This document shows, piece after piece, positions 4,214 through 20,629 of a stretch of 64,000 bases of DNA. A program made the translations under genes and the position numbers. The DNA comes from Ottowia sp. GTDB lineage: Bacteria > Pseudomonadota > Gammaproteobacteria > Burkholderiales > Burkholderiaceae_C. The notes beneath the pieces were generated by a model, which saw only the letters and a list, made by a program, of their open reading frames with translations, was not told where the DNA came from and did not search any database. Where the stretch lies: NCBI GenBank assembly GCA_052170415.1, contig JBQNAO010000003.1, positions 43,400 through 107,399 of the forward strand, written 5' to 3'. Position 1 is the first letter of the stretch. Each line of letters opens with the position of its first letter.

Positions 4214-4668
4214 AACCTCTGCCCGAACCGCTGCGCAAGCCCGCAAAGGCTCTGGCGCTTCAAGCGCCCGGGGCGCGGCAAAGCGGCCTTACCTTGCTGG
4301 AAGTGCTGGTGGCTTTTTCCATCATGGCGATGTCCATGGGGCTGCTCTATCAGGCGATGGGCAGCAATGTGCGGCATACGGCTGATATGGCCGAGCGTGA
4401 AAAGGCCGCCCTGCTGGCCGAATCCCTGCTGGCCATGCACGAGCTGGTGCCGCCGCAAGGCGTCAATGAATCGGGCCAATCCGCCGCCTATCAATGGACG
4501 CTGCGCAGCGTGCCCCATCCCACGCCGCTGAATGCGCAAAACCCGGCTGCCGCCGCCCTGCACGAATTGCAAGTGAGTGTGCGCTGGGGGCAGGATGCGC
4601 CCCGCGAGCTGACCTTGAGCACCTTGCGGCCGCAGCGCCTGCTTCAGCCGGGCGAGAGGCTGCGATGA
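4210..4668 (+). CDS. gspI: Minor pseudopilin, GspI-like
   Basis: 152 aa with a G|LTLLEVLVAFSIMAMS prepilin motif. ATGA overlaps on both sides. Confidence 0.7.
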   Translation: MKPLPEPLRKPAKALALQAPGARQSGLTLLEVLVAFSIMAMSMGLLYQAMGSNVRHTADMAEREKAALLAESLLAMHELVPPQGVNESGQSAAYQWTLRSVPHPTPLNAQNPAAAALHELQVSVRWGQDAPRELTLSTLRPQRLLQPGERLR

Positions 4669-5345: not shown

Positions 5346-6202
5346 GAAGCGCGGGTTTTCCGAACTTGCGCTTTCGCTGCCGCGGTCTGGCTTTGGTGAT
5401 GGTGCTGTGGATCGTGGCGGCGTTGAGCCTGTTCGTGGTGGGCATGAGCCAGGCGGTGCGCCAGCAGGTCAAAACCACGGCCAGCCTTACCGAGCAAGTG
5501 CGCGCGCGTGCGCTGGCGGAAGGGGCTATCGCTCTGGCGCTACAGCGCCTCACCGTCACGCGCGACGAATCCCAGCTTTTGCGTAGCGTACCGGTGGATT
5601 ACGCCGGCGTGCAAATGCATGTGCAGGTTATGCCACTGAACGGCCTGATTGCGCTCAACGCCGCCCAGCCCGTATTGATTTCGGCCCTGCTGCAAGTGGC
5701 CGCCGGCGTGCCCGAGCCGCAGGCCAACCGTCTGGCGCATCAAGTGCTGGCCTGGCGCGCAGGCGACGCAAGCCGCGGCATCAGGGCGCGCCAGTTCGAG
5801 TCGGTGGAAGACCTGCTGCTGGTGCCGGGCATGGACTACGCCATCTACAGCCGCGTGCGTGATCTGGTTACGCCAGATGCCTTGCATGCAGCGCAAGTCA
5901 ATCCCCTGGCCGCGCCCCTGCCCGTTCTGCTGGTGCTGGCGCGAGGCAACCGCAGCGTCGCCGAGCGCATTGCCAGCCGCCGTCAGGCCGGGCAGGAAGG
6001 CGACATGGATCTAAGCGGCCTGGATGGCGCGCTGATCGCTACCGGCTCTTCTCTCTTTTACCGGGTTGCCGCCAACGTTCCCCTTGATGCAGGCAAAATG
6101 CTCGTTTTTTCGCGCGACGTCAGGTTTTCCGGGTTTGAGCGGCAAATTGCGCCCTGGCGCACCTTGCGCACGCAGTGGCGTATCGAGTCCGCCTCGCATT
6201 GA
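5342..6202 (+). CDS. gspK: Minor pseudopilin GspK-like
   Basis: 286 aa. The N-terminal hydrophobic segment GLALVMVLWIVAALSLFVV lacks the Glu5 pseudopilin signature, as in GspK. Position is after gspJ. ATGA overlap. Confidence 0.7.
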   Translation: MRSAGFPNLRFRCRGLALVMVLWIVAALSLFVVGMSQAVRQQVKTTASLTEQVRARALAEGAIALALQRLTVTRDESQLLRSVPVDYAGVQMHVQVMPLNGLIALNAAQPVLISALLQVAAGVPEPQANRLAHQVLAWRAGDASRGIRARQFESVEDLLLVPGMDYAIYSRVRDLVTPDALHAAQVNPLAAPLPVLLVLARGNRSVAERIASRRQAGQEGDMDLSGLDGALIATGSSLFYRVAANVPLDAGKMLVFSRDVRFSGFERQIAPWRTLRTQWRIESASH

Positions 6203-6233: not shown

Positions 6234-7331
6234 ATGGCTTTGGCACCTTCCAGCGACCTGCGCCTGTTTGGCATTGATCTGGGCCGATGGCGGCAGCAGT
6301 GGCACGCGGCTGCGGCCCTGCTGCTGGCGCACCCGGCGCTGCGCGCGCTTACGCCCAGTGTCAGCGTTCGGCTGCACCAGGCCAGCGGGCAGCGTACATG
6401 GTGGCGCATGGCGCAGGATGAGGCCTACCCGATTACTGCCCCGGCCAACCAGCAGCCCCAGGTTAACGCCATCGAGCTTTCCGCCCAGGATGTGCTGGAG
6501 CGCAGCCTGACCCTGCCTGCGCTGCCGCCTGCCGATTTGGCCCAGGCCGTGCAGTTGGAAGTGGCGGCGCTCACCCCTTTCAAGCCTGAGCAGACTGTGT
6601 TTGGCTACCGCGTGCAGCCTGCAACCGCTGACCGAGTGCGGGTGGACTTGGCGTTGACTTCGCGCCAGCATATGGATGTGCTGCTGCTTCAGCACGCGCG
6701 AATCAGCCGTCCGGAAGTGTGGGTGCTGCCCGCAAACGGTGCATCAGGAGCGGGCGATGGCGCGCTTCAGCCCATTTGCATGCCCGTGGTGGGAAACCGG
6801 GTGCGTCTGCGCCTGGTTCAGCATGGCCGCCGCCTACGCCTGTTGCTGCTTGGCCTGGCGGGCCTGCTGCTGCTGGCGCTGGCTGTTACCCCCACGATGC
6901 AATTGCGCCAGCGTGCCTTGGCCGCCCAAAGCGCCCTGGCGGCGCTGACTGCCGAAACTGCCCCCCAGCAGGCCGTGCGCGAAACCTTGCAAATTCAGAC
7001 TGAACGCATGATCAGCTTGCACGAAGTGGCGGGCGATCAGTTGCAGGCGGTGAAGGCGCTGGCACTGGTTACTGAAGCCCTGCCCGAAACAGCGTGGATC
7101 AACCTGATGCGAGTGGAGGGCGGCAAGATGTTTATCAGCGGTTTTGCCAACGATGCAGCGGCCCTGGTGCAGGACTTGTCCAAGCGGCCGGGCGTGCATG
7201 GCGCGCGCCTGTCTTCACCGGCCGTGCGCCATGGCAACAGTACGCAAGAGAGCTTCACGATCGAGCTTCAGTTTGACGCCGCTCTGGACCGCCTGGCCCC
7301 TGCCAGTGCAGGGCAGGGGGAGGCTTCATGA
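6234..7331 (+). CDS. GspL-like assembly protein with a PilN-like periplasmic half
   Basis: 365 aa. Cytoplasmic N-half, a single TM (LRLLLLGLAGLLLLALAV), and a coiled-coil plus ferredoxin-like C-half. Operon position matches gspL/xpsL. The sequence is divergent. Confidence 0.55.
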   Translation: MALAPSSDLRLFGIDLGRWRQQWHAAAALLLAHPALRALTPSVSVRLHQASGQRTWWRMAQDEAYPITAPANQQPQVNAIELSAQDVLERSLTLPALPPADLAQAVQLEVAALTPFKPEQTVFGYRVQPATADRVRVDLALTSRQHMDVLLLQHARISRPEVWVLPANGASGAGDGALQPICMPVVGNRVRLRLVQHGRRLRLLLLGLAGLLLLALAVTPTMQLRQRALAAQSALAALTAETAPQQAVRETLQIQTERMISLHEVAGDQLQAVKALALVTEALPETAWINLMRVEGGKMFISGFANDAAALVQDLSKRPGVHGARLSSPAVRHGNSTQESFTIELQFDAALDRLAPASAGQGEAS

Positions 7332-7888
7332 GCGCCGCCTCCATGCGCCCCGAGCGCTTTTGGCTGATCTTGCTGGGCCTGCTGGTCGTCGCCGTGCTGG
7401 GCGTGGGTGCAGGGTGGGTTTATGGCAAGCACCGCTGGGCGGCGGCCCGCCTGGCTGACATCGAACCGCGTTATGCCCGCCTGGAAGGCTTGAAAAACAG
7501 CGCCCCTCGCCTGCAAGAGCTGGGCGAGCAGTTGCGCGAGCGCATGGGGCAATACGTTTATCCGGCGGGCGAAGATCCGTCCCATGCCGGCAACAGCGCC
7601 TTGCAGCAGGTGCGCGAGCGTGCCGCCAGCGCGCAGTTGAATGTCACCAGCAGCCAGGCGCTGACCGCGCGCGAGGAAGAGGGTTTTTATCGCGTGGGGC
7701 TGAATGTGCAACTGGAGGGCGATTGGGCCCGCGTGGCCGAGTTTTTGCAGTCGCTGTTTGTGATGCGCCCGGCCGTGTATCTGGAGCGCATGCAAATCAC
7801 CAGCTCGCAAGGCCACATGGAGGACGGCCCGCAAAAAGTCACCGTCACGCTCAACCTCTTTGTTTTGCAGGAGCGCCCCGAGCCATGA
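7328..7888 (+). CDS. GspM-like (PilO-like) assembly protein
   Basis: 186 aa with N-terminal TM FWLILLGLLVVAVLGVGAGWV. Follows the gspL-like gene with an ATGA overlap. Confidence 0.55.
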   Translation: MSAASMRPERFWLILLGLLVVAVLGVGAGWVYGKHRWAAARLADIEPRYARLEGLKNSAPRLQELGEQLRERMGQYVYPAGEDPSHAGNSALQQVRERAASAQLNVTSSQALTAREEEGFYRVGLNVQLEGDWARVAEFLQSLFVMRPAVYLERMQITSSQGHMEDGPQKVTVTLNLFVLQERPEP

Positions 7889-8421
7889 AACGCCCCTTTT
7901 CCTTCGTGGCGGCCGTTTTGGGTGTTTGCGTTGCGCTGGCGTTGGCGCTTGCGGCCTTGTGGGCGCAAATGGGCTGGCGTGGCGTTTGGCAGCCACCTGC
8001 CGCGCAGCCGCCGCAGCTTGATGACTTGCTGGCGAACATTCCTGCCGCCATGACAGCGGATGAAACCGTGCCTTCGGTGCTGATCGGCAGCCCGCCGTTT
8101 TTCATCAGCCGCCGCCCGCCCCCCGCCAAGGGGGCGGACGTTGCCAAGAAGGAAGACAAGCCCGAGATCGAGCTGGACAAAATCCGCTTTTACGGCATCG
8201 TCAGTGGCCCCGCGCTCAAAGCCGTGATGGCCGAGGTGCAAGGCAAGGCCCATTCGGTGCGCATTGGCGAGCAGGTGGTCGGCTGGGAGCTGGTGTCTAT
8301 CGAAGACCGAAAAATCACCTTTGCCAAAGGCGTGCAGCGCCGTGAGCTGGAACTCGCGCATGCCCACACGGCGCTCAAACCGGCGGACAAACCCGCAGAA
8401 AGTCCCGCGCCCAAGCCTTGA
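7885..8421 (+). CDS. GspC/XpsN-like protein with a PilP/HR-type domain
   Basis: Internal ATG at 7885 gives MKRPFSFVAAVLGVCVALALALAALW (TM). The C-terminal beta-rich IRFYGIVSG...AHSVRIGEQVVGWELVSIEDRKITF resembles secretin-binding HR/PilP domains. It lies just upstream of the secretin gene. Confidence 0.5.
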   Translation: MKRPFSFVAAVLGVCVALALALAALWAQMGWRGVWQPPAAQPPQLDDLLANIPAAMTADETVPSVLIGSPPFFISRRPPPAKGADVAKKEDKPEIELDKIRFYGIVSGPALKAVMAEVQGKAHSVRIGEQVVGWELVSIEDRKITFAKGVQRRELELAHAHTALKPADKPAESPAPKP

Positions 8422-8489: not shown

Positions 8490-10874
8490 ATGTTTGATCC
8501 CATTTCTCCACGCACCGCCCTCTCGCTCGCGCTGGCAAGCTGGCTGGCCGCCGCCTGTGTTACGCAAGCGCCCGCCCAACCGGTCGCTGAGCCGCCTGCG
8601 AGCGAAACAAGCGCAGCCCAAACCGTGGAGGCCCCGCAAGAGCCTGCCGCCGCGCCTGCGGCCGAAAGCAGTGATCAGGCGCAGCCCCCCGAGCGCGAGC
8701 CCCTGATCGTGCGCGGCAATGATGAAATGGTGCGCGCACCCAAGAATCTGCCCCGCGTAACCGGCCCTGTCAGCGCCTTCAAATTTGAAGACGCGCCCGT
8801 GGGGGAGGTGGTGCATGTCATGTTGCGTGATTTGCTCAAGGTCGATTACGTCATCCATCCGCCGCTCAATGGCCGCGTCACGTTGGTTACACGCGGGCAG
8901 GTGTCGGCTGACAAGGCCATGAACCTGCTGGAAAGCGCCTTGCAGCTCAACGGCATCGTCATGGCCCGCGATGCCCGCGGCACCTATCACGTTGGCGCGC
9001 CCAGCGCCCTGCGCGACATCGTTTCCGCCCCCCGTATTGCAGGCGACGACCCGCTGCCCCCCGGCTACGGGGCCATCATCATTCCGCTTGAATATTTGGG
9101 CGCGGCCGAAATGGCCAACATCCTGCGCGCGCTGGCTCCGTCTGATGCCATCGTGCGCGTCGATACCTTGCGCAACATCCTCATCATGCGCGGCACCCGC
9201 GCTGAGGCCGAGGGCTGGCTTGACGTAGTCAAAACCTTCGACGTCAATTTGCTGCGCGGCATGTCGGTGGGTGTGTTTCCCTTGCAATACACCTCTCCCG
9301 CTGAAGTGCAGCATGCCTTGTCCATTCTTTCAGGGGCCGCAGGCTCTGCTGCCGCAGCCGTTGCTCCGGTGCCGGTGCCGGTGCCAGGGCGGGGTGCGGC
9401 GGCCCCAGCGCAGGCCACGCCTGCCCCAGCGCCCCTGGGCGAGAACAACCCGCTCTTTGGCGCCGTGCGCGTGATGCCGCTGGACAGCATCAATTCTGTG
9501 TTGGTCATCACCCCCCGCGCTGCATATCTGGATGAAATCAAATACTGGATCAACAAGTTTGATCGCCCCAATGCGGGCAGCAGCGAGCCCCAGCTTTTTG
9601 TTTACAAGGTCAAAAACGGCTCGTCCGAGCATCTGGCCGAATTGCTCAACGGCATCTATGGCGGCGCGGCTTCTGAATCCACATCGGGCGCATCCTCCAC
9701 GGGCGTTGCGCCGGGTTTGAGCAGCGTCTCGGGGGGCACGGCAGGCGCTTCGCGCAGCCCCTTTGGCAGTTCATTGGGGAGCTTCTCGGGCGGTTCATCG
9801 GGCAGCGTGTTTTCCGGTACCTCATCTTCCGCGAATCTGGGCGGTGGCGGCCTGTTTGGCAACCGCACCAGCGCCAACCAGGGCAATGCCGCTCAAAACG
9901 CAGCCGCCACGGTCACTGTCACGCTGGGGCAAAACGTGCGGGTGATGGCCGATCGCATCAATAACACCCTGCTCATCTACGCCACCCCGGGAGAGTTTTC
10001 GCGCATCGAGGCCACGCTCAAGCGGCTGGATGTGCAGCGCGCCCAGGTGCTGATTGAAGCCAGCATCATCGAAGTCACGCTGGGCGACGACCTGCAATAC
10101 GGCCTGCAATGGGCCTTTAAAAACAACGATGGCGAATTTGGCACGGGCCGCAATGGCCTGGGCGTGCTCAATAACGGCAGAGGCACCACAATTGGCGGCG
10201 CCTCGCTGGGCAGCACGATCAGGAATGCAGCCCAAGGCTTCAGCTACACCCTCACCAGCTCCATCGGCAACCTCACTGCCGTGCTGAACACACTGGCATC
10301 CAAATCACTGCTCAAAGTGATCTCCAGTCCATCGCTCATGGTGCTGGACAACCACACCGCTGCCATCTCCGTGGGCGATCAGCAGCCCGTCAACACCGGC
10401 ACCACCATCAGCAGCAGCGGCACCATTGCCACCACCAACAACATTCAATACAAAGATACCGGCGTGATGCTCAACGTCACCCCTTCGGTGAATGCGGGCG
10501 ATCTCGTCACGATGGAAATCGAGCAGACCATCACCGATATCGGCCGCCAGGACGATGTAACCGGCCAGCGCAGCTTCATGCAGCGGCAAATTGCCTCCAA
10601 AGTCGCTGTTCGATCGGGCGAAACCCTGGTGCTCGGCGGTCTGATTAAAAACAACCAGTCCCAGGGCTCGTCCGGTCTGCCTCTGCTCTCGTCCATTCCT
10701 GTTCTTGGTGGCCTGTTTGGCTCGCAGAACAAGTCAGATTCCCGCACCGAGCTTCTGGTTGTCATCACCCCCCGCGTATTGCGCTCTGATGAAGATGCTC
10801 GCGCCGTCAGCCGTGAAATGCGCGATCGCATGCGGGGCCTGAGTTTGGGCGACGCCAGTCTGCCCCATCCCTGA
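8490..10874 (+). CDS. gspD: Secretin GspD/XpsD, probably lipidated, with low-complexity inserts
   Basis: 794 aa. N-domains (GNDEMVRAP..., TYHV, VIIPLEYLGAAEMANIL, NILIMRGT), and a C-terminal secretin core (VISSPSLMVLDNHTAAISVGDQQPV...LLVVITPRVL). The N-terminus ends in ...ASWLAAAC. Confidence 0.88.
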   Translation: MFDPISPRTALSLALASWLAAACVTQAPAQPVAEPPASETSAAQTVEAPQEPAAAPAAESSDQAQPPEREPLIVRGNDEMVRAPKNLPRVTGPVSAFKFEDAPVGEVVHVMLRDLLKVDYVIHPPLNGRVTLVTRGQVSADKAMNLLESALQLNGIVMARDARGTYHVGAPSALRDIVSAPRIAGDDPLPPGYGAIIIPLEYLGAAEMANILRALAPSDAIVRVDTLRNILIMRGTRAEAEGWLDVVKTFDVNLLRGMSVGVFPLQYTSPAEVQHALSILSGAAGSAAAAVAPVPVPVPGRGAAAPAQATPAPAPLGENNPLFGAVRVMPLDSINSVLVITPRAAYLDEIKYWINKFDRPNAGSSEPQLFVYKVKNGSSEHLAELLNGIYGGAASESTSGASSTGVAPGLSSVSGGTAGASRSPFGSSLGSFSGGSSGSVFSGTSSSANLGGGGLFGNRTSANQGNAAQNAAATVTVTLGQNVRVMADRINNTLLIYATPGEFSRIEATLKRLDVQRAQVLIEASIIEVTLGDDLQYGLQWAFKNNDGEFGTGRNGLGVLNNGRGTTIGGASLGSTIRNAAQGFSYTLTSSIGNLTAVLNTLASKSLLKVISSPSLMVLDNHTAAISVGDQQPVNTGTTISSSGTIATTNNIQYKDTGVMLNVTPSVNAGDLVTMEIEQTITDIGRQDDVTGQRSFMQRQIASKVAVRSGETLVLGGLIKNNQSQGSSGLPLLSSIPVLGGLFGSQNKSDSRTELLVVITPRVLRSDEDARAVSREMRDRMRGLSLGDASLPHP

Positions 10875-10899: not shown

Positions 10900-11445
10900 A
10901 TGTCTTTATTGAGATTCCCGCGAGCAAACGCCGCGCTGTGCCTGGGCGTGGCCTTGACCTTGGCCGGCTGCGCATCCGTGCAGGAAAGCGGCCGCCCGGA
11001 GCAAGTGGTACAGGCCCGCGCCGAGGCCCGCTGGGCCGCCCTGCTCAAGGCAGACTTTGAAAAAGCCTGGGAATATACCCGCCCTGAATACCGCCAGAAA
11101 GTGGAGCAGGCCAACTACCGCAATCAATTCGGCAACCCCGGGGTGTGGAAGCGGGCGGAAGTGGTTAAGGTTGCCTGCCCGGCTGCCAGCCAGTGCCTGG
11201 CCACCATCAGGCTGACGACGCAAACCATTGCACCGGGCTTTATTGCCACCCTTCCTGAAACCACCACTCACTACGAAGAGGAATGGGTGCGTGAAGAGGG
11301 GCGCTGGTGGTATGGCGACATCCATACTTTTAAAGCCCAGAGTATCTTGAGCGAAGAGCCTGCGGCGCAAGCCGTGGAAAAAACCGATGCGCCTGCCGCC
11401 GCAGCGCAAGAGCAAAAGCAACCGGCTGGCGCTCCCGCGCACTAA
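10900..11445 (+). CDS. Lipoprotein, NTF2/SnoaL-like fold predicted, with an acidic Ala-rich tail
   Basis: 181 aa. Signal plus lipobox LTLAGC. AAAAGGAGA Shine-Dalgarno. Starts 25 nt after gspD. Confidence 0.6.
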   Translation: MSLLRFPRANAALCLGVALTLAGCASVQESGRPEQVVQARAEARWAALLKADFEKAWEYTRPEYRQKVEQANYRNQFGNPGVWKRAEVVKVACPAASQCLATIRLTTQTIAPGFIATLPETTTHYEEEWVREEGRWWYGDIHTFKAQSILSEEPAAQAVEKTDAPAAAAQEQKQPAGAPAH

Positions 11446-11494
11446 GTCTGTTGCAAAAATGTCAAGCGCAGCCGGATTTTTCGCAAACTCGAAC

Positions 11495-11524
11495 TTGAGT
11501 TTTCTGTTTCGGCTGTGCTAGCAT
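11495..11524 (+). promoter_or_regulatory. Candidate sigma70 promoter for the 513-aa secreted protein gene
   Basis: TTGAGT (11495..11500), 18-nt spacer, TAGCAT (11519..11524), about 70 nt upstream of the ATG at 11595. Pattern match only. Confidence 0.3.
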
Positions 11525-11594
11525 CCCCAGTGCATTCTCAAGGCTTTTTCTTGGGAGTTGCGTTTACTTTTCTACTCTCATTGGAGTCATAGCT

Positions 11595-13136
11595 ATGAAG
11601 AAGAGCGTTCTCTCGATTGGTGCAGTCCTGTTGATGGGCGGCCTGGGTTCCGCGCATGCGGTTTATTACTTTGGCGCTGGTACTACTTTCGGCCATACGA
11701 CAGCGCCTCAAGCTACCGAGCTGCGTCAAAACGCTGGTGGCACCGGGCACATGCTGTATGTGCCTTACTACTCGGTGCAAGGCGCCAGCGCTTCCTACAT
11801 CAATATCACCAACACGGACAAGGACAACGGTAAGGCTGTGAAAGTGCGTTTCCGTGGCGCTGCCAACTCGGACGACGTGCTGGACTTTACCCTTTTGCTG
11901 TCCCCCAGGGACGTGTGGACTGCTCGTATCACCAAAGATCAGCAAGGTCACGCCACGATCTCGACCGAGGATAATAGCTGCACGTTGCCGACCTTCCCTG
12001 CTTCGGGTCAGCCTTTCATCACCCAGCGTCTGGCTGGCTACCTGACTGACGCTGCCAAACTTTCCCACACCCGTGAAGGTTATGTGGAAATTTTGAACAT
12101 GGCGGACATTCCTCCTGGAACCAAGCTGTTTGAGGCAATCGAACATAGCGCCAAGGGTGTTCCTGGCAACTGTAACGCGACTGCTGTGCAAACCACCCTG
12201 ATCAACCAAACTGGCGGTACTGCTGCTATTGCTCAGGCTGCTGGCCTGGCGGCGCCTACCGGCCAATTGATGGGTTCCTGGGCGATTACCAATACCTCTA
12301 AAGTTGCCATGTATGGCGGTGCCATGCCCGCAGTTCAGGCAACTAATGGTTCTGGCGTAAACGGTTACGGTAACATCATTTTCTCGCCCCAGGTGGGTTC
12401 TGCGGTGTCTGGTGTGACTGTTAATGAACAGACTGCAGACCCGTTGCTGGTTGGTGGTTTGGTGAATGCGTTGTGGTATGACCTGCCTGATATGTCCACC
12501 CCGCTGGTGCCTAATTTCGACAGCCGTCCGAACAAACAGGTGGCTAGCATCGGTATCTTGCACAGCACGGTGAATAATGAGTATGCTGCCGATCCCACAA
12601 ACGCCGTGCCTATGACGACTGACTGGGTGTTCTCTCAGCCCACCCGCCGCTACTATGCCGCATTGGACTACAAAACTTCGGCTAATGAGGCAAGAATTGT
12701 TTGGACGGACGTGGTTGCCACTAATGCTGCTGCTGCGCCTGGTACGACGTCTTCCGGTCTTGGTACCGCAAGCAATGCTTACTCCGGTCTGAATAAACAG
12801 GTTAAGGCTGACTTGGGCGCATTTGCCTGCCTGCCTGTGGTTGTGGGCACGGTGGATCGTGAAGAGCGTACGGTTTCGGCCGGTGCCTCCTTCTCGCCTG
12901 GCAACCAGGCTTCCGTGTGCGGTGAAGTGTTCACGCTGAGCTTTGGTGGCAGTTCCGTTTTGGGCGCCGAGCTGACCAACGTTCCTGTAACTTCTGTTGG
13001 TAAAGAAGGCTGGGGCTATGTGACGATCGGTGGTCTCGGTTCTGCTATCGCCATCCCTGTGGTGGGCTTCTCGGCTACCTCGGTCTACGCTCCGACCATT
13101 GGTAACTTCGGTCTGACGCTGCCGTACCGCTGGTAA
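11595..13136 (+). CDS. Abundant-looking secreted or cell-surface protein of unknown family, candidate T2SS cargo or S-layer-like
   Basis: 513 aa. Signal peptide MKKSVLSIGAVLLMGGLGSAHA|V. GGAG Shine-Dalgarno 8 nt upstream. TAA stop. G+C is visibly lower, with many T-ending codons (GGT/GCT/CGT/ACT/CCT) unlike the neighbours. Rich in Ala/Gly/Thr/Ser/Val/Asn. Ends ...LTLPYRW. A strong terminator follows. Confidence 0.75.
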   Translation: MKKSVLSIGAVLLMGGLGSAHAVYYFGAGTTFGHTTAPQATELRQNAGGTGHMLYVPYYSVQGASASYINITNTDKDNGKAVKVRFRGAANSDDVLDFTLLLSPRDVWTARITKDQQGHATISTEDNSCTLPTFPASGQPFITQRLAGYLTDAAKLSHTREGYVEILNMADIPPGTKLFEAIEHSAKGVPGNCNATAVQTTLINQTGGTAAIAQAAGLAAPTGQLMGSWAITNTSKVAMYGGAMPAVQATNGSGVNGYGNIIFSPQVGSAVSGVTVNEQTADPLLVGGLVNALWYDLPDMSTPLVPNFDSRPNKQVASIGILHSTVNNEYAADPTNAVPMTTDWVFSQPTRRYYAALDYKTSANEARIVWTDVVATNAAAAPGTTSSGLGTASNAYSGLNKQVKADLGAFACLPVVVGTVDREERTVSAGASFSPGNQASVCGEVFTLSFGGSSVLGAELTNVPVTSVGKEGWGYVTIGGLGSAIAIPVVGFSATSVYAPTIGNFGLTLPYRW

Positions 13137-13208
13137 TCAGGCGCTTGGCAAGCGCGCAAGCCTGCAAAGGATGGCGCGCTTGCAATGTGGCCTTATTGCA
13201 AAGCGTAA

Positions 13209-13238
13209 GGGTGGAACTTCGGTTCCACCCTTTTTTTT
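13209..13238 (+). terminator. Rho-independent terminator
   Basis: GGGTGGAAC-TTCG-GTTCCACCC followed by T8. Confidence 0.85.
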
Positions 13239-13800
13239 GGCCTTTCGCATGGATTTTTCTTAAACAGGCACGGATGCGCGCCCTGGCCGAGTCGGTGCTG
13301 CCGGGCTTTGTGCGTGCGGCTTTGCTGGCGTGTGCCGCTGCTTTTCGATAGCGCGTGCGCCCGTTCGGGGTGGGGTGACGCAAGGGCGCGGGCAGTTGGA
13401 AGCCGAGTTGGGCGGGGATGGCAAGCGCCTTGTGTGGTGGCGGTGCCTGCTTCGGCGGTTCTCAATGGGCCAGGGATCGCGGTTTTTGTTTTCTTCTTCC
13501 GTGGGAAGGCTGGCTTTTCAGGCCGATCGCCCTCGGGCGCGATTTGCCGCACCGCAAATTTTTGACCGCCGTTTTTGCGGCCGCGCGCCGCGGCGGTGGT
13601 GTTTGGCGCTTGAAGTTCGCGTTGGATTGGGCGCATGCGCGGCGCAAGCCTTGCCCGGTCTTTTGCTCCGGCCTTGAGTTGTGCCAGGGTCTTTTCATCC
13701 GCTTGCGTGGACAATTCGACTTTGCAGGGCGGCGCGGCCGTGGCGGCTTTTGCCGGCGCGCATGGCCCACCCTTGAGCCATCGAAAAGTCAAAAAAACAC

Positions 13801-14637
13801 ATGAGCGAGTTATTGAATACGCCAGGGGCGCTGGCAACGGACTGGCGCACCCTCTGGCGTTTGCGCCGTCTGCTGGCGGTGATGACCCTGCGGGAGTTGC
13901 AAGGGCGTTTTGCCGGATCGGCTGGGGGGCTGTTTTGGGCCTGGGCGCAGCCTGCGCTGGGCATTGCGGCGTATTACCTGGTGTTTGATGTGGTGTTTGC
14001 CCTGCGCATGGGGCAGGCCGATGCGGCGGGGGCGCAAGCGCCGCGCCTGGGGGCTTTTTTGATCGTCGGCATGCTGGCCTGGATGGCGTTCAGCGATGCC
14101 ACGCAGCGCGCCATGGGCAGCCTGGTGGAAGCGGGCGGTCTGCTGCAAAAAAACCCCCTGCCGCCCGCGCTGTTTCCGGCTCGCGCGGTGCTGGGCAGCG
14201 CGGTGGTGTTTGCGCCGTTGCAACTGGCGCTGGTGCTGGCCTACTGGCCGCGGCACGGGGGCGCTTTGCCGGTGTGGCTTTTGATGCCGCTGCTGGTGCT
14301 CACGCAGGCGCTGCTGGCCTGGCTGCTGGGGTATTTGCTGGCGGTGCTGACGGCGGCGCTGCGCGATGTGGCGCAGGTGGCGCAGTTTGCGTTTTCCATA
14401 GGCGTGTTTTTTGCGCCGGTGCTTTTTCCCATCACGCTGTTTCCGCAGGGCTGGCGGGCGCTGCTTTGGCTCAACCCCATGACGGCCTGGGTGTTGGCCT
14501 ATCAGGCCCTGCTGCTGCACGGGCAATGGCCGCCGGCCCAGGTGTGGCTGGCCATGCTGGCCTGGCTGGCGGCGCTGGCGCTGCTGCTGAATGTGGCCCT
14601 GCGCCGCGTGCGCGATCAATTGGTGGACTGGCTGTGA
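13801..14637 (+). CDS. ABC-2 type polysaccharide/O-antigen exporter permease (Wzm-like)
   Basis: 278 aa with six predicted TM segments and typical ABC-2 organisation. The stop overlaps the GTG start of the ATPase. Confidence 0.75.
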   Translation: MSELLNTPGALATDWRTLWRLRRLLAVMTLRELQGRFAGSAGGLFWAWAQPALGIAAYYLVFDVVFALRMGQADAAGAQAPRLGAFLIVGMLAWMAFSDATQRAMGSLVEAGGLLQKNPLPPALFPARAVLGSAVVFAPLQLALVLAYWPRHGGALPVWLLMPLLVLTQALLAWLLGYLLAVLTAALRDVAQVAQFAFSIGVFFAPVLFPITLFPQGWRALLWLNPMTAWVLAYQALLLHGQWPPAQVWLAMLAWLAALALLLNVALRRVRDQLVDWL

Positions 14638-15938
14638 CTGAGCTGAATAACAAGCTGGAAGAAGAAGTGGTGCTGCGCGCCGTGAACGTGGGCAAGCGCT
14701 ATCGCCTTTACGCCTCGCCGCGCCAGCGCCTGAAGGCGCTGCTGACGGGGCGGGCGGATTACAAAAGCCACTGGGCCTTGCGCGATGTGTCGTTCGAGCT
14801 GCGGCGCGGGCAGTGCATGGGCGTGATTGGCGACAACGGCGCGGGCAAAAGCTCGCTGCTGAAATTGCTGGCCGGCACTTTGCACCCCTCGCAGGGGCGG
14901 ATCGAGCGGCACGGGCGCATCACCGCCATCCTGGAGCTGGGCGCGGGCTTTCACCCCGATTTCAGCGGCCGCGAAAACCTGTATTTCAGCGGCAGCCTGA
15001 TCGGCATTGATCGGGAAAAAATGGCCGAGCTGGAGCCGGAAATCGCGGCTTTTTCCGGCCTGGGCGACGCGCTGAACCGCCCGGTGAAAACCTATTCCTC
15101 GGGCATGACGGTGCGGCTGGCCTTTGCCCTGGTCACGGCTGTGCAGCCCGATGTGCTCATCATTGACGAGGCCCTGGCCGTGGGCGATCAGCAGTTCCAG
15201 AAAAAATGCGTGGAGCGTATTGACCAATTCCGCGCCCACGGCTGCACGATTCTTTTTTGCTCGCACAGCCTCTATCACGTGCGGCACTTGTGCGATGTGG
15301 CGCTTTGGCTCGATCAGGGCAGCGTGCGCGCCCTGGGGCCCACGGAAGAAGCACTGGCCGCCTACGAAGCCCATAGCCGCCAGATCAGCCCAGGCGGCCA
15401 GAGCCGGCCAGCGGATGACGCCGCCGCGCTGCCTGGCGCCGATCAAGCCGATGGCTCCACGCCTGCCCCCGCCGCCCCGCCCGCCAGCGAGCAGCCGGCG
15501 GCATTGGTAAGCGTGCAGGCCGAAGGGCTGCCCTGCGCAGCAACTTGCAACGGCCCGCAGCCGCCGGCCGGCCAGACGCTGCCCACGCTGCCCGGCCCGG
15601 ACTTGGCCCTCACCGTGCGCGCGCGCAGCACCGTGGGCGGCGAGCCGCCCAGCATCGGCCTGATGCTGGAGCAATGGCAGGGCGTGGGCATTGCCTCCAT
15701 GGCCACGCACGCCGAAGGCGCCACGCCGCGCGCGCTGGGCGACGGGCTGTGGGAAGTCACCCTTCGCATCCCCGATTTGCCCCTGCACAGCGGCGACTAC
15801 GTGATCAGCGCCTATCTGTTTGATGCGCAAGGGCTTGTTGTGTATGAGCAGTGGCCGCGCTGCCTGGCCTTTCGCTGGATCAGCCCCAGCCTCACCCCCG
15901 GGCTGGTGCGCCTGCCCCACACCTGGAGCGGCGCATGA
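14634..15938 (+). CDS. Polysaccharide ABC exporter ATPase (Wzt-like) with a C-terminal extra domain
   Basis: GTG at 14634 in ORF 14274..15938. Walker A GDNGAGKSSLLK, signature YSSGMTVRLAF, Walker B VLIIDEAL. About 190 aa of C-terminal extension ends in the beta-rich LWEVTLRIPDLPLHSGDYVISAYLFD (Wzt_C-like). Confidence 0.8.
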   Translation: MTELNNKLEEEVVLRAVNVGKRYRLYASPRQRLKALLTGRADYKSHWALRDVSFELRRGQCMGVIGDNGAGKSSLLKLLAGTLHPSQGRIERHGRITAILELGAGFHPDFSGRENLYFSGSLIGIDREKMAELEPEIAAFSGLGDALNRPVKTYSSGMTVRLAFALVTAVQPDVLIIDEALAVGDQQFQKKCVERIDQFRAHGCTILFCSHSLYHVRHLCDVALWLDQGSVRALGPTEEALAAYEAHSRQISPGGQSRPADDAAALPGADQADGSTPAPAAPPASEQPAALVSVQAEGLPCAATCNGPQPPAGQTLPTLPGPDLALTVRARSTVGGEPPSIGLMLEQWQGVGIASMATHAEGATPRALGDGLWEVTLRIPDLPLHSGDYVISAYLFDAQGLVVYEQWPRCLAFRWISPSLTPGLVRLPHTWSGA

Positions 15939-16873
15939 GCGCCCCTGAAAACACCCCGGCCCCCACCGGCGTGCGCGCTGCCTGGGCCCGGCGCTGGCAG
16001 CGCCTGCGCACCGAAGCGCGCGATGCGCTGGAGCTGGTGCTGCTGCCAGGTCTGGCCGCCGTGCTGCCCTGGCCCTGGTGCTTTGCCCTGTTCAAGCGGC
16101 TGGCCCGCCTGCGCTGGCTCTACGGCCCGGTGTGCGAGCGCGCCCTGGCTCAAGCGCAGCAGCGCGGCATGGCGGCCGATCCGGCGCACTGGCTGTGGCA
16201 GCGCCGCCTGGTCACGCTGGTGGATCACGCCGATTACTACCTGGGCCGCTTTCGTGGCGACGGCTGGCTGCGCCGCCACGTGCAGGTGCAAGGCCAGTGG
16301 CCCGCGCCCGATCGGCCCGGCATGCTCTGCACCTTCCACTGGGGCGCGGGCATGTGGGGACTGCGCCATGCGCGCCAATCGGGCCTGCACGCGCACGCGC
16401 TGGTGGCCTCGCTGAACTCGCAAGCCTTTCAGGGGCGCACCGTGCTGGGCTGGTATGCCCGCGCGCGCACCCGCGAAGTCGCCCGAGCCCTGGGCCGCCC
16501 CACGCTGGACGTATCCGCCTCCTTGCGCCCGGCCGTGCGCGCCCTGCGCGCCAACGAGCAAGTGCTGGCCGCCGTCGATGTGCCCGCCGATCAGGTGGCC
16601 GCCAGCGAGCCGCTGCAACTGTGCGGCATGCGCGCGCGCGCCCCACGCGGGCTGCTGCGCCTGGCGGCAGAGCAGGGCGTGCCCGTGACGATCTACATCA
16701 CCGGGCTGGACATGCGCAGCGGCCAGCGCTTTTTGCGCATCGAACAACTCGCGCGCGAGGGCGACACCTCCGCGCTCATCATCCAAACCTTCGCCCGCCT
16801 GCAAGACCTGCTCTACGAAGACCCCGCCGCCTGGCACTTCTGGAGCGAAGCTGAGCGATTTTTCGAGCGCTGA
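15935..16873 (+). CDS. Possible lipid A-type (LpxL/HtrB-like) acyltransferase family protein
   Basis: ATG at 15935 overlaps the wzt stop (ATGA). N-terminal TM, and FHWGAGMWGL at the position of the HxGNWE motif but without the acidic residue. Assignment is tentative. Confidence 0.4.
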   Translation: MSAPENTPAPTGVRAAWARRWQRLRTEARDALELVLLPGLAAVLPWPWCFALFKRLARLRWLYGPVCERALAQAQQRGMAADPAHWLWQRRLVTLVDHADYYLGRFRGDGWLRRHVQVQGQWPAPDRPGMLCTFHWGAGMWGLRHARQSGLHAHALVASLNSQAFQGRTVLGWYARARTREVARALGRPTLDVSASLRPAVRALRANEQVLAAVDVPADQVAASEPLQLCGMRARAPRGLLRLAAEQGVPVTIYITGLDMRSGQRFLRIEQLAREGDTSALIIQTFARLQDLLYEDPAAWHFWSEAERFFER

Positions 16874-17263: not shown

Positions 17264-18004
17264 ATGTTCGACGTTCTGATTCGTGAAATGGCTGTGCGCT
17301 TCAACCTTGGCGACAAGGCGCTGCCCCTGCTGCAAATGCTGCTGGCGCGCGTGGCGCAAAAAGACACGGGCGGCCTGCCCGGCTTTCTGGAAAGGCTCAA
17401 GGCCGCGGGCATGGGGCCAACCATTCAAACCTGGCTGGGCGGCGGGCCGCTGGCCAAGGCCGCCACGCACAGCCAGATTGAAAACGCGCTGGGCCAGACC
17501 GGCGGGCTGCTGGAAGAAATCTGCGCCCGGCTGGATGCGCCGCGCGACGACGTGGCCGGCGCTCTGGGCTATTTGCTGCCCTACGTGGTGGGCAAGCTCA
17601 CCCCCGGCGGCAGCATGCCCGCCAGCCTGCCCGACGAAGTGCAAAGCCTGGCCGAAGTGGGCCAAACCCTGCTGGCCGCCCCCCTGCCCGCCAGCGGTGG
17701 CGGCAGCGGCAAATGGCTCTGGCCCGCCGTGGGCGTAGTGGCCGTGGCGCTGCTGGGCTTGAGCTACTGCAACAAGAGCGAAGAAGCCCCGGCGCAAGCG
17801 CCCGCCCCGGCCGTGGCGGCCCCGGCGCAAGCCCCCGCAGAAACCCCCGCCGAAACCCGGCCCGCCCCGGCAGAAGCTGCCCCCGCGCCAGAGGCCGTGC
17901 CCGCACCGGATGAGCAGGCCCGGCCCGCCGAAGACAAGCCGGCAGAAGAAGCCAAGCCTGCTGAAGACGAAAAACCGGCGGAAGAAGCCAAGCCCGCCGC
18001 CTGA
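17264..18004 (+). CDS. DUF937/YidB-family protein with a TM and a Pro/Ala/Glu-rich tail
   Basis: 246 aa. ...IQTWLGGGP...ALGYLLPYVVGKLTPGG matches the DUF937 pattern. Confidence 0.6.
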   Translation: MFDVLIREMAVRFNLGDKALPLLQMLLARVAQKDTGGLPGFLERLKAAGMGPTIQTWLGGGPLAKAATHSQIENALGQTGGLLEEICARLDAPRDDVAGALGYLLPYVVGKLTPGGSMPASLPDEVQSLAEVGQTLLAAPLPASGGGSGKWLWPAVGVVAVALLGLSYCNKSEEAPAQAPAPAVAAPAQAPAETPAETRPAPAEAAPAPEAVPAPDEQARPAEDKPAEEAKPAEDEKPAEEAKPAA

Positions 18005-18027
18005 TTGCCGCCTCGGCTTCGTCAAAA

Positions 18028-18064
18028 CCAGCGCCTGTTTTGAAAACGGGCGCTGGTTTTTTTT
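18028..18064 (+). terminator. Rho-independent terminator
   Basis: CCAGCGCC-loop-GGCGCTGG followed by T8. Confidence 0.8.
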
Positions 18065-18203
18065 ATGCGCCTTTGCCCGGGCGCATGCGCTGCGCGGCCC
18101 GGTCGGGCCGAAGGCGGGTTTTGCCGGGTTTTGAAAGATTTTGTGAGCGCTTGGGGTGGGTTTTGCGCGGTTTTCTGCCTGCATTTATGCGCGGCGCAGC
18201 GGC

Positions 18204-18320
18204 GGAAAATGGGCGGGAATCGAGCTGGAAGCGGGCTGAAATCGGGCCGAAATTTGACTGAAACCGGGCGGAAATCCGGCGCAAAACGGGGTTTGAAACC
18301 GGGCGCGGCGAAAGGCGGGC
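18204..18320. repeat. Phased 11-bp A-tract/GC-clamp tandem array
   Basis: Eight consecutive exact 11-bp units: GGAAAATGGGC GGGAATCGAGC TGGAAGCGGGC TGAAATCGGGC CGAAATTTGAC TGAAACCGGGC GGAAATCCGGC GCAAAACGGGG. Two looser units follow. Confidence 0.8.
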
Positions 18321-18322
18321 AA

Positions 18323-18361
18323 GAAAAAAGCGGATACCGGCTTGCGGCATCCGCTTTTTTT
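18323..18361. terminator. Bidirectional hairpin terminator
   Basis: AAAAAAGCGGAT-ACCGGCTTGCGGC-ATCCGCTTTTTTT, downstream of grxD on the minus strand. Confidence 0.7.
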
Positions 18362-18415
18362 GTGTGAGCTGTTGTTCTTTTTGAATGACTGACCGAAGTG
18401 GTGGCGCGGGCAGTA

Positions 18416-18742
18416 TCAGTCGGCGTTTTCGGTCAGCAGGGTATGCAATTCGCCCGATTCATACATTTCCATCATGATGTCGGAGCCGCCGATGAATTCG
18501 CCATTGACATAAAGCTGGGGAATGGTGGGCCACTGGCTGTAATCCTTGATGCCCTGGCGGATTTCTTCATCGGCCAGCACATTGACGGTGACGAGTTTTT
18601 GCAAGTTCATGCCCGAGGCTTTCAATATCTGAATGGCCCGGCCCGAAAAACCGCACATGGGAAAGTGGGCATCGCCTTTCATGAAGAGCACGAAGGGATG
18701 ACCTTTGACTATGGTTTCAATGCGTTGATGAACGTCGCTCAT
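18416..18742 (-). CDS. grxD: Monothiol (Grx4-type) glutaredoxin
   Basis: Internal ATG at 18742 gives 108 aa. CGFS active site ([10 protein letters not shown]) and [19 protein letters not shown]. Confidence 0.9.
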
Positions 18743-18871
18743 GGCGAGGGAACTCCTGGTGGGATGAAAAATGCGCCGAGAAAATGATCTGCCGCTGTGG
18801 CAGGCGGCGGCAGGTTTTGGCTTGCGAATGCGGCGGCGATTATTCCAGTTTTGCTTTTTGCGCGGGCCGTG

Positions 18872-18906
18872 CAAAAAACAATGGCCTGTGCTAAGGCAGG
18901 CCATTG
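18872..18906 (-). terminator. Rho-independent terminator downstream of hns
   Basis: Minus strand reads CAATGGCCTG-CCTTAGCA-CAGGCCATTG then TTTTTTG. A second hairpin (18923..18954) precedes it. Confidence 0.8.
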
Positions 18907-18966
18907 AGAGGGGGGAAATGAAGTGCGCAAGAGGGAGAAAACCGCCTTGCGCACGCACGCCGCAAA

Positions 18967-19260
18967 TCAGGCAATCAGATAGGCGCTGCGGTCTTTGCCT
19001 TCTATCCACTTCGGGGCTTTGCCACGGCCGGTCCAGGTGGCACCGGTGGCCGGATCGCGGTATTTGGGGGCGACTTTGGAGCCGGCATTGCGCGAAGCGC
19101 CGCGGCGGCCGGAAGGGAAAATGTCTTGCTGGGTCAGGCCATATTGCTGAATCAGTGCGTTGACTTTGCCCAAGGCTTCGGACAGTTCGTGTTGGCGGGC
19201 CTGTTCGATTTGGGAGTTGAGTTGTTCGCGTTGTTCAAGCAATTCTTTGAGGGATGCCAT
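18967..19260 (-). CDS. hns: H-NS family nucleoid-associated protein
   Basis: 97 aa. N-terminal coiled coil, and the C-terminal [21 protein letters not shown] (TWTGRGxxP DNA-binding motif). Confidence 0.85.
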
Positions 19261-19333
19261 GCTGTTGAATCTCCTAGACGAATGTCAAAAAAGGGAAACC
19301 CAAATATAGCACCCTTTTCTGATTTTGTTTGTT

Positions 19334-20629
19334 TCAGGTTTTTAATAAAGGGCGGGCGGCCACTTTATCAATGCGGCGGCCTTGCAGCGCCAGCACTTCA
19401 AATTCCCAATCGGCGACGGTGATGCGCTCGCCCTGGCGCGGCAAATCGCCCGATTCGGCCATGAGCAGGCCGGCCACGGTGTTATAGCGGCCCTTGCTCT
19501 CTTGCGGTAATTGGCGGATTTGCAGGCGGGTTTTCATTTCATTGACGGGCATCAAACCTTCCAGTATCCAGCCGCCATTGGCCGTGGGGGTGGCCCAGGC
19601 GTCAATATCGGCGTCGGGTTTGAGTTCGCCGGTAATGGCTTCGAGCAAATCGCGCGGAGTCATCATGCCTTGCACCACGCCATATTCATCCACAACCAGC
19701 AGCAGGCGGCCCGATTTGGCGCGCAATTGCTCCAGCATTTCCAGCCCGCTCAGGGTTTCGGGCACGAATACGGCATTTTCACAATGCTCGGCCAGGGTGC
19801 CGGGGGCATTTGCGCCCAATTCAAGTAATCGCGCCACGCTGATGATGCCGGCCACTTCATCGAGTCCGCCGTGGCAGACGGGATACCACGAATGCGATTG
19901 GCTTTCTTTTCGCGCGGCCACATATTCCAGCGTTTGCGCGACGGTGTTTTGCGCATTCAGCCATTCAATATCGCTGCGCGGCACCATCAGCGAAGTGAGA
20001 GGCCGGTCATCCAGGTGAAAGACATTGCGCACCATTTGGTGCTCGTGCGCTTCGATCAGGCCGGCGTCCACGCCTTCGGCCAGGCTGGCGGAAATTTCCT
20101 CGGCGGTAACGGCGCGCTCGCCCTGGTTGTCAATGCGCAGCAGCTTCAAAACGCCCTGCGTGGAAAGCGATAGCAGCGCCACAAAGGGCCGGGTGAATGC
20201 GGCCAGCGCGCGCATGGGCGGGGCCATCCAGCGCGCCACGGTTTCGGGGTAGAGCTGGCCTATGCGCTTGGGCACCAGCTCGCCAAAGATGATGGTGACG
20301 AAGGTGATGAGCGCCACCACCAGCACCGTGGCCAGCACGCCGGCGGCGCGCTCGGCCATGCCCAGCCCGTGCAGCCAGGCGGCCACCGGGCCGCTGAAGG
20401 CGGCCTCGCCCACGATGCCGTTGAGCACGCCGATGGAAGTAATGCCCACCTGCACGGTGGAGAGAAACTGCGTGGGGTCATCCATCAGTCGCAGCGCCAC
20501 GGCGGCCGCGCCATCGCCGCTTTCGGCCATTGCGGCCAGGCGGGCCTTGCGGCTGGCCGCCAGCGCCATTTCAGACATGGCGAACACGCCATTGAGCACG
20601 ATCAAGAGACAAATCAGCAGCAGTTCCAT
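19334..20629 (-). CDS. CNNM/TlyC-family transporter-associated protein (DUF21-CBS-CorC_HlyC)
   Basis: Start at the internal ATG (MELLLICLLIVLNGVFAMSEMAL). CBS pair region and C-terminal CorC/HlyC domain. Confidence 0.8.
   Translation of the reverse strand: MELLLICLLIVLNGVFAMSEMALAASRKARLAAMAESGDGAAAVALRLMDDPTQFLSTVQVGITSIGVLNGIVGEAAFSGPVAAWLHGLGMAERAAGVLATVLVVALITFVTIIFGELVPKRIGQLYPETVARWMAPPMRALAAFTRPFVALLSLSTQGVLKLLRIDNQGERAVTAEEISASLAEGVDAGLIEAHEHQMVRNVFHLDDRPLTSLMVPRSDIEWLNAQNTVAQTLEYVAARKESQSHSWYPVCHGGLDEVAGIISVARLLELGANAPGTLAEHCENAVFVPETLSGLEMLEQLRAKSGRLLLVVDEYGVVQGMMTPRDLLEAITGELKPDADIDAWATPTANGGWILEGLMPVNEMKTRLQIRQLPQESKGRYNTVAGLLMAESGDLPRQGERITVADWEFEVLALQGRRIDKVAARPLLKT

Follow-up and report, generated by a model that had tools for sequence, protein, structure and literature searches.

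We have analysed a 64,000 nucleotide (nt) stretch of DNA from Ottowia sp. (GenBank assembly GCA_052170415.1, contig JBQNAO010000003.1, positions 43,400 to 107,399 of the forward strand), referred to here as the window and numbered from its first nucleotide. An open reading frame (ORF) at 11595-13136 on the forward strand encodes 513 amino acids from an ATG start to a TAA stop codon. It is preceded by a complete type II secretion system (T2SS) operon, gspE-F-G-H-I-J-K-L-M-(N/C)-D, and followed by the polysaccharide exporter genes wzm and wzt. We consider it highly probable that the ORF is npdA, the structural gene of the surface layer (S-layer) in an uncultured species of Ottowia near O. massiliensis, and that the account given below is correct as a whole. 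The observations made here concern homology, synteny, codon statistics and allele diversity; S-layer formation by NpdA in this organism is what we infer from them.

The gene and its product

An initial annotation, made from the sequence alone, had described the ORF with its TAA stop codon and a GGAG Shine-Dalgarno (SD) sequence, both of which are present, the SD at 11583-11586 being located 8 nt 5' of the ATG. The Sec-type signal proposed at the same time can also be read from the sequence, as the N-terminus, MKKSVLSIGAVLLMGGLGSAHA followed by VYYF, has the n-region, h-region and AxA layout of such signals and ends in AHA. This region aligns with the N-terminus of the family, the putative signal peptide of 22 amino acids being encoded by codons 11595-11660; in the aligned NpdA of Paracidovorax citrulli a 25 amino acid signal is predicted by SignalP (PMC10765051). 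The mature protein has 491 amino acids, a mass of 51.0 kDa and an isoelectric point of 5.4. As had been noted, it is rich in Ala (12.4%), Gly (10.8%), Thr (10.4%), Val (8.8%), Ser (7.5%) and Asn (5.7%) and poor in charged residues, with Asp, Glu, Lys and Arg together contributing 12.4% compared with a proteome median of 20% (8th percentile). The aromatic C-terminus (...PYRW), likewise pointed out initially, is shared by the family, R512 being invariant and W513 at least 90% conserved.

BLASTP alignment indicated 37% identity to P. citrulli NpdA (E 9e-85, residues 1-513 against 1-527) and 38% identity over the full length to the orthologue from Delftia acidovorans (E 2e-98). Both references were translated from genome contigs, the P. 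citrulli protein (P0121) from a contig of strain DSM 17060; P0121 agrees with the sequence printed in the supplementary material of PMC10765051 and is the published NpdA, WP_011797163/Aave_4148. NpdA was first found in Delftia sp. Cs1-4, in which gene disruption abolishes the S-layer and the associated 'nanopods' (Shetty et al. 2011, PMC3110197), and was proven in P. citrulli AAC00-1 by deletion, proteomics and cryo-electron microscopy (Gajbhiye et al. 2023, PMC10765051). Such a layer was also present in 15 of 16 further npdA-bearing cultures (PMC10765051), with a regular lattice lost on deletion and a sodium dodecyl sulfate-resistant oligomer of >150 kDa being reported for Delftia Cs1-4 and P. 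citrulli only (PMC3110197, PMC10765051). The family received its name in 2011, and a survey of 2023 lists 111 species, among them O. beijingensis, O. caeni and O. thiooxydans (PMC3110197, PMC10765051). The family is therefore already known, given full-length homology to a proven NpdA and the presence of Ottowia on the published list, and the initial description of the product as a member of an unrecognised family is not supported. The NpdA family is missing only from the Pfam and NCBIfam domain collections: no Pfam, NCBIfam or PDB sequence match was obtained with the single NpdA protein as query, and nothing was found when PDB was searched with a 40-sequence NpdA profile.

Conservation extends along the length of the protein, with 66 invariant columns in the 40-sequence alignment. 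Invariant residues include K80-K83-R85-R87, N91-S92-D93-D94, D296-P298-D299-S301-T302-P303, Q348-P349-T350-R351-R352-Y353, E423-E424 and four cysteines (C129, C193, C412 and C442) in addition to R512, and invariant or nearly invariant motifs are GKAVKVRFRGAxNSDDxLDF, DLPDMSTP, PTRRY, DREE and the terminal R-W. Homology searches detected >2,800 relatives, the named ones being Ottowia 'cell surface' or hypothetical proteins, and the nearest named orthologues are only ∼49% identical. Profile search of 1.84 billion representative proteins yielded 3,325 clusters (50% identity) at E ≤ 1e-3 and 2,496 at E ≤ 1e-10. Within the genus, npdA is carried by 11 of 19 Ottowia genomes; the orthologous locus (L034) is present in the closest isolate, O. 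massiliensis Marseille-P4747.

The AlphaFold2 model of NpdA, constructed from the 40-sequence alignment, is mostly beta and was predicted with confidence (predicted local distance difference test (pLDDT) 85.8, predicted template modelling score 0.88). Foldseek comparison of this model with PDB and BFVD returned whole-chain matches at noise level (template modelling (TM) score ∼0.1), the best matches being weak, domain-level similarities to lectin- or jelly-roll-type sandwiches. An outer-membrane beta-barrel, hinted at by the C-terminal aromatic residue, was considered and rejected, as no porin or other outer-membrane protein barrel occurs among the top 50 PDB matches of the confident model.

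Promoter, leader and terminator

The 149 nt region upstream of npdA is better conserved than the protein across Ottowia-clade loci, promoter, leader and SD being maintained even where the proteins share only 45-55% identity. In 10 Ottowia-clade loci, TTG(A) and GTGnTAGCAT form invariant columns separated by a variable 18 nt spacer, and GGAGTCAT is invariant before the npdA ATG. Across genera, a TTGnnn-N-TGnTAnnnT layout is detected in 28 of 66 loci, in 27 of which it lies 56-85 nt upstream of the ATG. This conservation suggests that the element functions as the npdA promoter; a consensus promoter scan did not report it. A stem-loop in the 5' leader is no more than a possibility, since its pairs never covary, no compensatory changes being observed, and the folding energy is unexceptional (z-score -0.98, not significant). 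The terminator identified in the initial annotation is present, a hairpin followed by T8, with a stem of 11 pairs of which six are G-C. A putative private promoter, conserved leader, strong SD and strong terminator would suit a monocistronic, heavily expressed gene.

Organization of the npdA locus

The features of the locus are listed in Table 1, in which neighbour conservation was determined by tblastn of the window proteins against 80 related loci.

Table 1. Genes and sequence elements of the npdA locus, with positions numbered within the window.
Feature	Position	Strand	Basis and conservation
gspE, T2SS ATPase	128-1885	+	Pfam T2SSE 1.8e-143 plus MshEN
gspF, inner-membrane platform	1878-3107	+	Pfam T2SSF 7.5e-53
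gspG, major pseudopilin	3132-3569	+	Pfam T2SSG 1.3e-38
gspH, gspI, gspJ, gspK, minor pseudopilins	3680-4213, 4210-4668, 4665-5345, 5342-6202	+	Pfam N_methyl, GspH, T2SSJ, T2SSK_1st
gspL, gspM	6234-7331, 7328-7888	+	Pfam PilN, T2SSM_b
gspN/C-like gene	7885-8421	+	no Pfam match; conserved in 53/80 loci
gspD, secretin	8490-10874	+	TIGR02517 type_II_gspD 2e-136, above cut-off; upstream of npdA in 74/80 loci
NTF2-like lipoprotein gene (pilotin-like or S-layer accessory candidate)	10900-11445	+	lipobox LAGC, two invariant Cys; 75/80 loci
Putative npdA promoter	11495-11524	+	-35 TTGAGT 11495-11500, 18 nt spacer, extended -10 TGcTAGCAT 11516-11524
Conserved 5' leader	11532-11594	+	hairpin-capable element ∼11532-11561, SD GGAG 11583-11586
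npdA, probable S-layer protein precursor	11595-13136	+	full-length homology to proven NpdA
npdA intrinsic terminator	13207-13240	+	hairpin 13207-13232 (11 pairs, 6 G-C), then T8; 70 nt after stop
Non-coding gap	13241-13800	.	position of PpiC-type isomerase gene in 65/69 related loci
wzm, ABC-2 permease of polysaccharide exporter	13801-14637	+	Pfam ABC2_membrane 2e-12; 70/80 loci
wzt, ABC ATPase	14634-15938	+	Pfam ABC_tran 1.3e-20; Wzt_C 1.5e-5, below gathering score; 69/80 loci
312 amino acid gene coupled to wzt	15935-16873	+	start overlaps wzt stop; no Pfam match; 30/80 loci

In ∼70 of 80 genomes, among them those of D. acidovorans and P. citrulli, the genes follow the collinear order gsp-lipoprotein-npdA-wzm-wzt, and orthologous, collinear loci are found in both Comamonadaceae and Rhodocyclales. 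Gene calls for gspH to gspK are identical in a conspecific contig (L087). A 12-gene gsp cluster upstream of npdA has been reported (PMC10765051), a paper which mentions none of the three other neighbours, the lipoprotein, peptidyl-prolyl isomerase (PPIase) and Wzm/Wzt genes. The initial annotation had raised the question of whether homologues always lie next to a T2SS; gspD is located upstream in 74 of 80 loci. Other GspE/F/D/G-like genes are found in the genome at C2:17569-28331, C39:2749-14035 and C11:10537-10950 and belong to a type IV pilus and perhaps to another T2SS. As other E/F/D-like sets exist, the npdA-linked T2SS need not be the general one, which is compatible with a system dedicated to NpdA.

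Downstream, wzm begins 665 nt after the npdA stop codon and is coupled to wzt. No exact match to an RfaH ops/JUMPstart element was found upstream of wzm, no Rfam family was detected anywhere in the window and no mobile-element genes flank npdA.

The lipoprotein family, aligned from 34 orthologues, is characterized by a lipobox and two invariant Cys. Its AlphaFold2 model (pLDDT 81) matched NTF2-like folds with a Foldseek probability of 1.0, including YchJ/SEC-C proteins, the PBP2a N-terminal domain and the CaMKII hub, so that an NTF2-like fold is predicted with confidence. The C-terminal tail of ∼40 residues (∼140-181), rich in Ala, Pro, Glu and Gln, is lacking in almost all of the 34 orthologues, with a similar tail only in L041.

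A gene for a PpiC-type PPIase of ∼310 amino acids with a signal peptide is located between npdA and wzm in 65 of 69 related loci. This gene is absent from the window and from the conspecific contigs, as well as from L007, L014 and L041, and no significant remnant of it was detected in the 560 nt gap at 13241-13800. Distant PPIase homologues (27-43% identity) are encoded elsewhere in the genome, on C1 (∼152.3-152.9 kb) and C50. Conservation of the accessory genes (lipoprotein, PPIase and Wzm/Wzt), with the PPIase gene lost in this lineage, is a modest addition to published accounts of NpdA.

The claim in the initial annotation that the product is a secreted cell-surface protein, probably of very high abundance, is supported, as it belongs to the NpdA S-layer family and is encoded behind what appears to be a dedicated T2SS. 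Several points nevertheless count against the S-layer assignment. No S-layer image was found for any Ottowia (the list of 16 imaged cultures was not checked for members of the genus), and npdA-bearing P. valerianellae is without a clear NpdA-type layer (PMC10765051). The isomerase gene usual at the locus is missing, the predicted fold provides no functional support, since the model is without a convincing structural relative, and export of NpdA through the adjacent T2SS and its attachment to what Wzm/Wzt exports remain suggestions from linkage and from the analogy with Aeromonas. It could be argued from some of the same observations that NpdA is here a soluble or loosely bound T2SS substrate, for example an adhesin, lectin or enzyme, which does not form a lattice. 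The one npdA-bearing species lacking a visible NpdA-type layer and the lost PPIase gene would agree with this alternative, as would the weak domain-level similarity detected by Foldseek to beta-sandwiches of galectin, laminin-G and lectin type (TM 0.4-0.47, ∼140 residues). We regard it as very unlikely, however, as the protein is a full-length orthologue of two genetically proven S-layer proteins, has no match to a catalytic family in Pfam or NCBIfam, and its whole-chain fold matches are at noise level, while npdA itself is intact with conserved promoter and leader. An S-layer role thus remains our preferred reading.

Strain-level variability

Comparison with a conspecific set of five metagenome contigs carrying the same locus indicated that NpdA is only 76-91% identical between conspecifics, compared with 96-100% for the flanking proteins. 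Contigs of this species derive from the ENA assemblies ERZ28576106, ERZ27993903, ERZ28634262, ERZ26867809 and ERZ27301581 and from Logan DRR582177. Non-synonymous divergence (dN) in npdA is 0.05-0.13 versus 0.002-0.011 in the flanks, 5-25 times higher, and its ratio to synonymous divergence (dN/dS) is 0.33-0.91 versus 0.03-0.23. In one allele, on contig L087, dS is 0.39 compared with ∼0.09 in the flanks, a four-fold excess which indicates that this allele was imported by recombination. The variable sites of NpdA form six patches (residues 23-45, 175-220, 255-275, 300-335, 365-400 and 480-490) and, when mapped on the predicted structure, involve 17% of strand residues versus 47-49% of loop or helix residues (p = 5e-13). 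In the model, a conserved beta core with fast-evolving loops would be the pattern expected of an exposed coat protein.

Tandem copies are seen in one long-read metagenome-assembled genome of Ottowia sp. (L050:10001-16700), in which three npdA-like copies or fragments lie between the lipoprotein gene and wzm. The genome with tandem copies (L050; L013) contains a further full npdA copy elsewhere, without T2SS context. Reading frames of the tandem copies are broken, which may reflect long-read error or silent S-layer variation cassettes.

Codon usage

Genes were called across the 2.3 Mb assembly and compared using the T-ending (T4) and A-ending (A4) shares of the four-fold families Gly, Ala, Arg(CGN), Thr, Pro and Val and the T share of two-fold pyrimidine-ending codons (Y2). 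The lower G+C content that the initial annotation had recognized by eye is confirmed: the G+C of npdA, 0.557, is below that of the genome (0.647) and of the median gene (0.672), a lower value being found in only 4.9% of genes, and its G+C at third codon positions is 0.595 versus 0.69-0.87 in flanking genes. The preference for T-ending Gly, Ala, Arg, Thr and Pro codons is equally evident, with T-ending shares of 58% for GGT, 44% for GCT, 64% for CGT, 59% for CCT, 27% for ACT and 33% for GTT against 4-7% in typical genes. Pooled T4 is 0.43-0.45 versus a median of ∼0.05, placing npdA at the 99.6th percentile (top 0.4% of genes). T4, A4 and Y2 are 0.45, 0.05 and 0.38 in npdA, respectively, and 0.04-0.06, 0.03-0.04 and 0.28-0.32 in the median gene. 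ATA, TTA and CTA are absent from npdA, and AGA and GGA each occur once.

The nearest neighbour of npdA in codon space is the major porin gene, C3:393-1382 (distance 0.030; next 0.169), with T4 0.42, A4 0.04 and Y2 0.38. This gene is Omp32-like, has a G+C of 0.518 and is situated 43 kb upstream of the window; a second porin gene, C16:49123-50109, is uniformly AT-rich (G+C 0.462). In 10 comparator genomes, from Ottowia, Delftia, Paracidovorax, Acidovorax, Diaphorobacter and Thauera, the best-hit porins have T4 of 0.22-0.53, with A4 and Y2 low in nine of the 10; O. massiliensis, whose porins are AT-rich throughout, is the exception. Compared with flanking genes, npdA has a higher T4 at 77 of 77 orthologous loci (mean 0.28 vs 0.10), a lower Y2 at 64 of 77 and no difference in A4. 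Since T4 is higher at every locus, the bias is a property of the gene family rather than a sign of recent arrival.

Foreign origin had been one of two causes proposed in the initial annotation for the atypical composition. Recent acquisition of the gene or allele from a donor of lower G+C could account for a G+C nine points below that of the genome, for rejection of the ORF by a codon-model gene caller and for the L087 allele, whose excess dS indicates that recombination with a diverged lineage has replaced the resident allele. AT-rich foreign DNA should, however, raise A-ending and rare codons, which npdA does not show, ATA and TTA being absent, AGA occurring once and A-ending codons not being in excess. 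Moreover, the orthologous locus keeps its gene order from Comamonadaceae to Rhodocyclales, the gene is present in 11 of 19 genomes of its genus, the same bias relative to the flanks recurs at 77 of 77 loci, the signature is common to the major porin and no mobile-element genes are adjacent. Recombination among Ottowia alleles explains diversity but not composition. Acquisition is consequently disfavoured and the remotest of the alternatives considered here.

The other proposed cause, translational selection for abundance, was assessed with 28 high-expression genes located by tblastn, independently of codon usage, using Escherichia coli probes, all of which gave strong matches. As a group, these genes have T4 above background (p = 2e-4). 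Other results speak against high expression as the source of the npdA bias. When the 28 ribosomal and other high-expression genes are used as reference, npdA has a codon adaptation index (CAI) of 0.477 and falls among the lowest 7% of genes (median 0.657), so that the comparison with ribosomal-protein genes suggested initially did not turn out in favour of this explanation. Most ribosomal-protein genes, together with those for S1, GroEL and EF-Ts, use C-ending codons (T4 0.02-0.10), as do those for S2, S12 and HU, and in the comparator genomes fusA is little enriched (T4 0.03-0.25). The npdA bias is thus not the general high-expression bias of the genome, because most ribosomal-protein genes use C-ending codons, and the low CAI leaves translational selection only partly supported: the T-ending excess, family-wide and common to the porin, is in its favour, the adaptation to the ribosomal-protein set is not. 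A tRNA-Ala(AGC) called by ARAGORN, a candidate cause of the GCT preference, was rejected as a false positive of 89 nt with 74% G+C; the bin holds only 36 tRNAs.

Genome composition

The genome is a G+C mosaic, in which 103 segments comprising 12.6% of bases fall below 55% G+C in a genome of 64.7%. Core operons of low G+C include the spc/alpha ribosomal-protein operons (0.45-0.50), nuo, atp and pilMNOPQ; examples outside the window are C15:24751-34750, C6:48251-61750, C12:30751-39000 and C1:174251-184000, and low-G+C spots within it are located at 18001-20000, 23001-24000 and 31001-32000. A chimeric assembly of the ribosomal operon on C15 was considered and rejected, as the SecY encoded there shares 78-90% identity with Ottowia SecY and the O. 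massiliensis locus has a G+C of 0.495. In some core operons, the G+C content of the lineage seems to have fallen by ∼15-20 points. No tuf, L16 (S10 operon) or L7/L12 gene was found in the assembly (G000), a 91.6%-complete bin. On C15, rplN marks an abrupt start of the spc operon, and many contigs end in low-G+C DNA; the missing operons (tuf, S10 and L7/L12) probably dropped out during assembly or binning owing to their composition.

A mosaic of this kind leads to a further explanation, in which the identity of NpdA stands but its composition is mutational, resulting from coding-strand C-to-T change under heavy transcription or from lineage-wide G+C loss, with little translational selection. 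The low-G+C core operons, the genuinely Ottowia-like SecY encoded in one of them, the T-rich coding strand of npdA (AT skew -0.145) and its low CAI are all in accord with such an origin. Contrary to it, npdA keeps C-ending two-fold codons (GAC 75%, TTC 69%, ATC 62%) and avoids A-ending codons, whereas in the low-G+C operons both T and A are enriched throughout (Y2 0.72, A4 0.11). In addition, the T excess is found in genomes which are not mosaics, such as Delftia and Paracidovorax, with Y2 below the flanks as expected under selection. We therefore judge a mainly mutational origin to be unlikely, although a transcription-linked mutational contribution to the signature may exist.

We conclude that the T-ending signature is family-wide and marks the two proteins expected to be most abundant in the envelope, NpdA and the porin. 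Very high expression of an envelope protein is, judged from codon patterns, the most likely cause of the atypical composition, rather than foreign origin, and high expression of npdA itself is likely but unproven.

Discussion

A route from gene to lattice can be proposed, the first two steps of which are supported by sequence features. npdA would be transcribed from its own conserved extended -10 promoter as a monocistronic mRNA with a ∼65 nt leader, a strong SD and a terminator, and the precursor would cross the inner membrane by Sec, losing its 22 amino acid signal peptide. The remaining steps are suggested by linkage and by relatives. NpdA would fold in the periplasm into a structure rich in beta-sandwiches, in which the four family-invariant Cys probably form two disulfides, with C129-C193 and C412-C442 as candidate pairs, and the folded protein would be exported by the T2SS encoded immediately upstream (gspE to gspD). 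It would then self-assemble into a lattice on the outer membrane, probably tethered by a polysaccharide exported by Wzm/Wzt, as the Aeromonas A-layer is by lipopolysaccharide (LPS), with the conserved NTF2-like lipoprotein acting as a possible accessory.

The closest known systems are the NpdA proteins of Delftia acidovorans Cs1-4 and P. citrulli AAC00-1, with which the Ottowia protein shares 37-38% identity over its full length, a mature size of ∼51-52 kDa, a putative Sec signal, the invariant motifs and four Cys, a gene position directly downstream of the gsp T2SS cluster and the lack of a Pfam domain. It differs in belonging to another, uncultured species whose npdA locus lacks the PpiC-type isomerase gene.

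In Aeromonas salmonicida, wzm and wzt are separated by the sps T2SS genes together with vapA, and LPS serves as the tether of the A-layer (PMC4483657). VapA resembles NpdA in being a ∼50 kDa Sec-dependent S-layer protein encoded beside a dedicated T2SS and a Wzm/Wzt exporter (PMC4483657). Gene order is not the same, however, since wzm and wzt flank the T2SS and vapA in Aeromonas, whereas in Ottowia the T2SS and npdA are both upstream of wzm-wzt, and the roles shown by genetics in the former are suggested by analogy in the latter. No sequence relationship between NpdA and VapA is reported, and the two sequences were not compared.

Clustering of an S-layer gene with its own secretion genes is also described for Slr4 of Pseudoalteromonas tunicata (T2SS) and RsaA of Caulobacter crescentus (type I secretion system), Slr4 being reported as the most abundant protein. 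Slr4 and RsaA are very abundant S-layer proteins of families unrelated to NpdA, and type I secretion and calcium-binding repeats, features of RsaA, are absent from Ottowia NpdA. RsaA is anchored by O-antigen.

A more extended proposal, which we put forward as tentative rather than probable, is that the npdA locus is a self-contained, widely conserved S-layer module with more components than so far described, consisting of the T2SS, NTF2-like lipoprotein, NpdA, PpiC-type chaperone and an anchoring glycan exported by Wzm/Wzt, in which npdA is hypervariable inside one Ottowia species, its exposed loops diversifying by positive selection and allele exchange under, for example, phage, predator or host pressure. 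According to this proposal, the T-ending signature, common to npdA and the major porin across Comamonadaceae, would define a codon class of 'super-abundant envelope proteins' distinct from that of ribosomal proteins.

S-layer proteins are hard to recognize by sequence, and annotation pipelines label NpdA 'hypothetical' or 'cell surface protein' for want of an entry in Pfam, NCBIfam or PDB. The value added by the present analysis is modest and the basic picture of NpdA is unchanged; a codon signature common to the porin and not to ribosomal proteins, together with strain-level hypervariability, are modest additions to it. The family is much larger than the 111 published species, with 2,496 clusters at 50% identity and E ≤ 1e-10. 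The accessory genes, strain hypervariability and porin-like codon signature provide testable hypotheses on export, folding and anchoring of NpdA layers. Naming npdA identifies the probable main surface structure of a host-associated Ottowia lineage and would give the adjacent T2SS a function.

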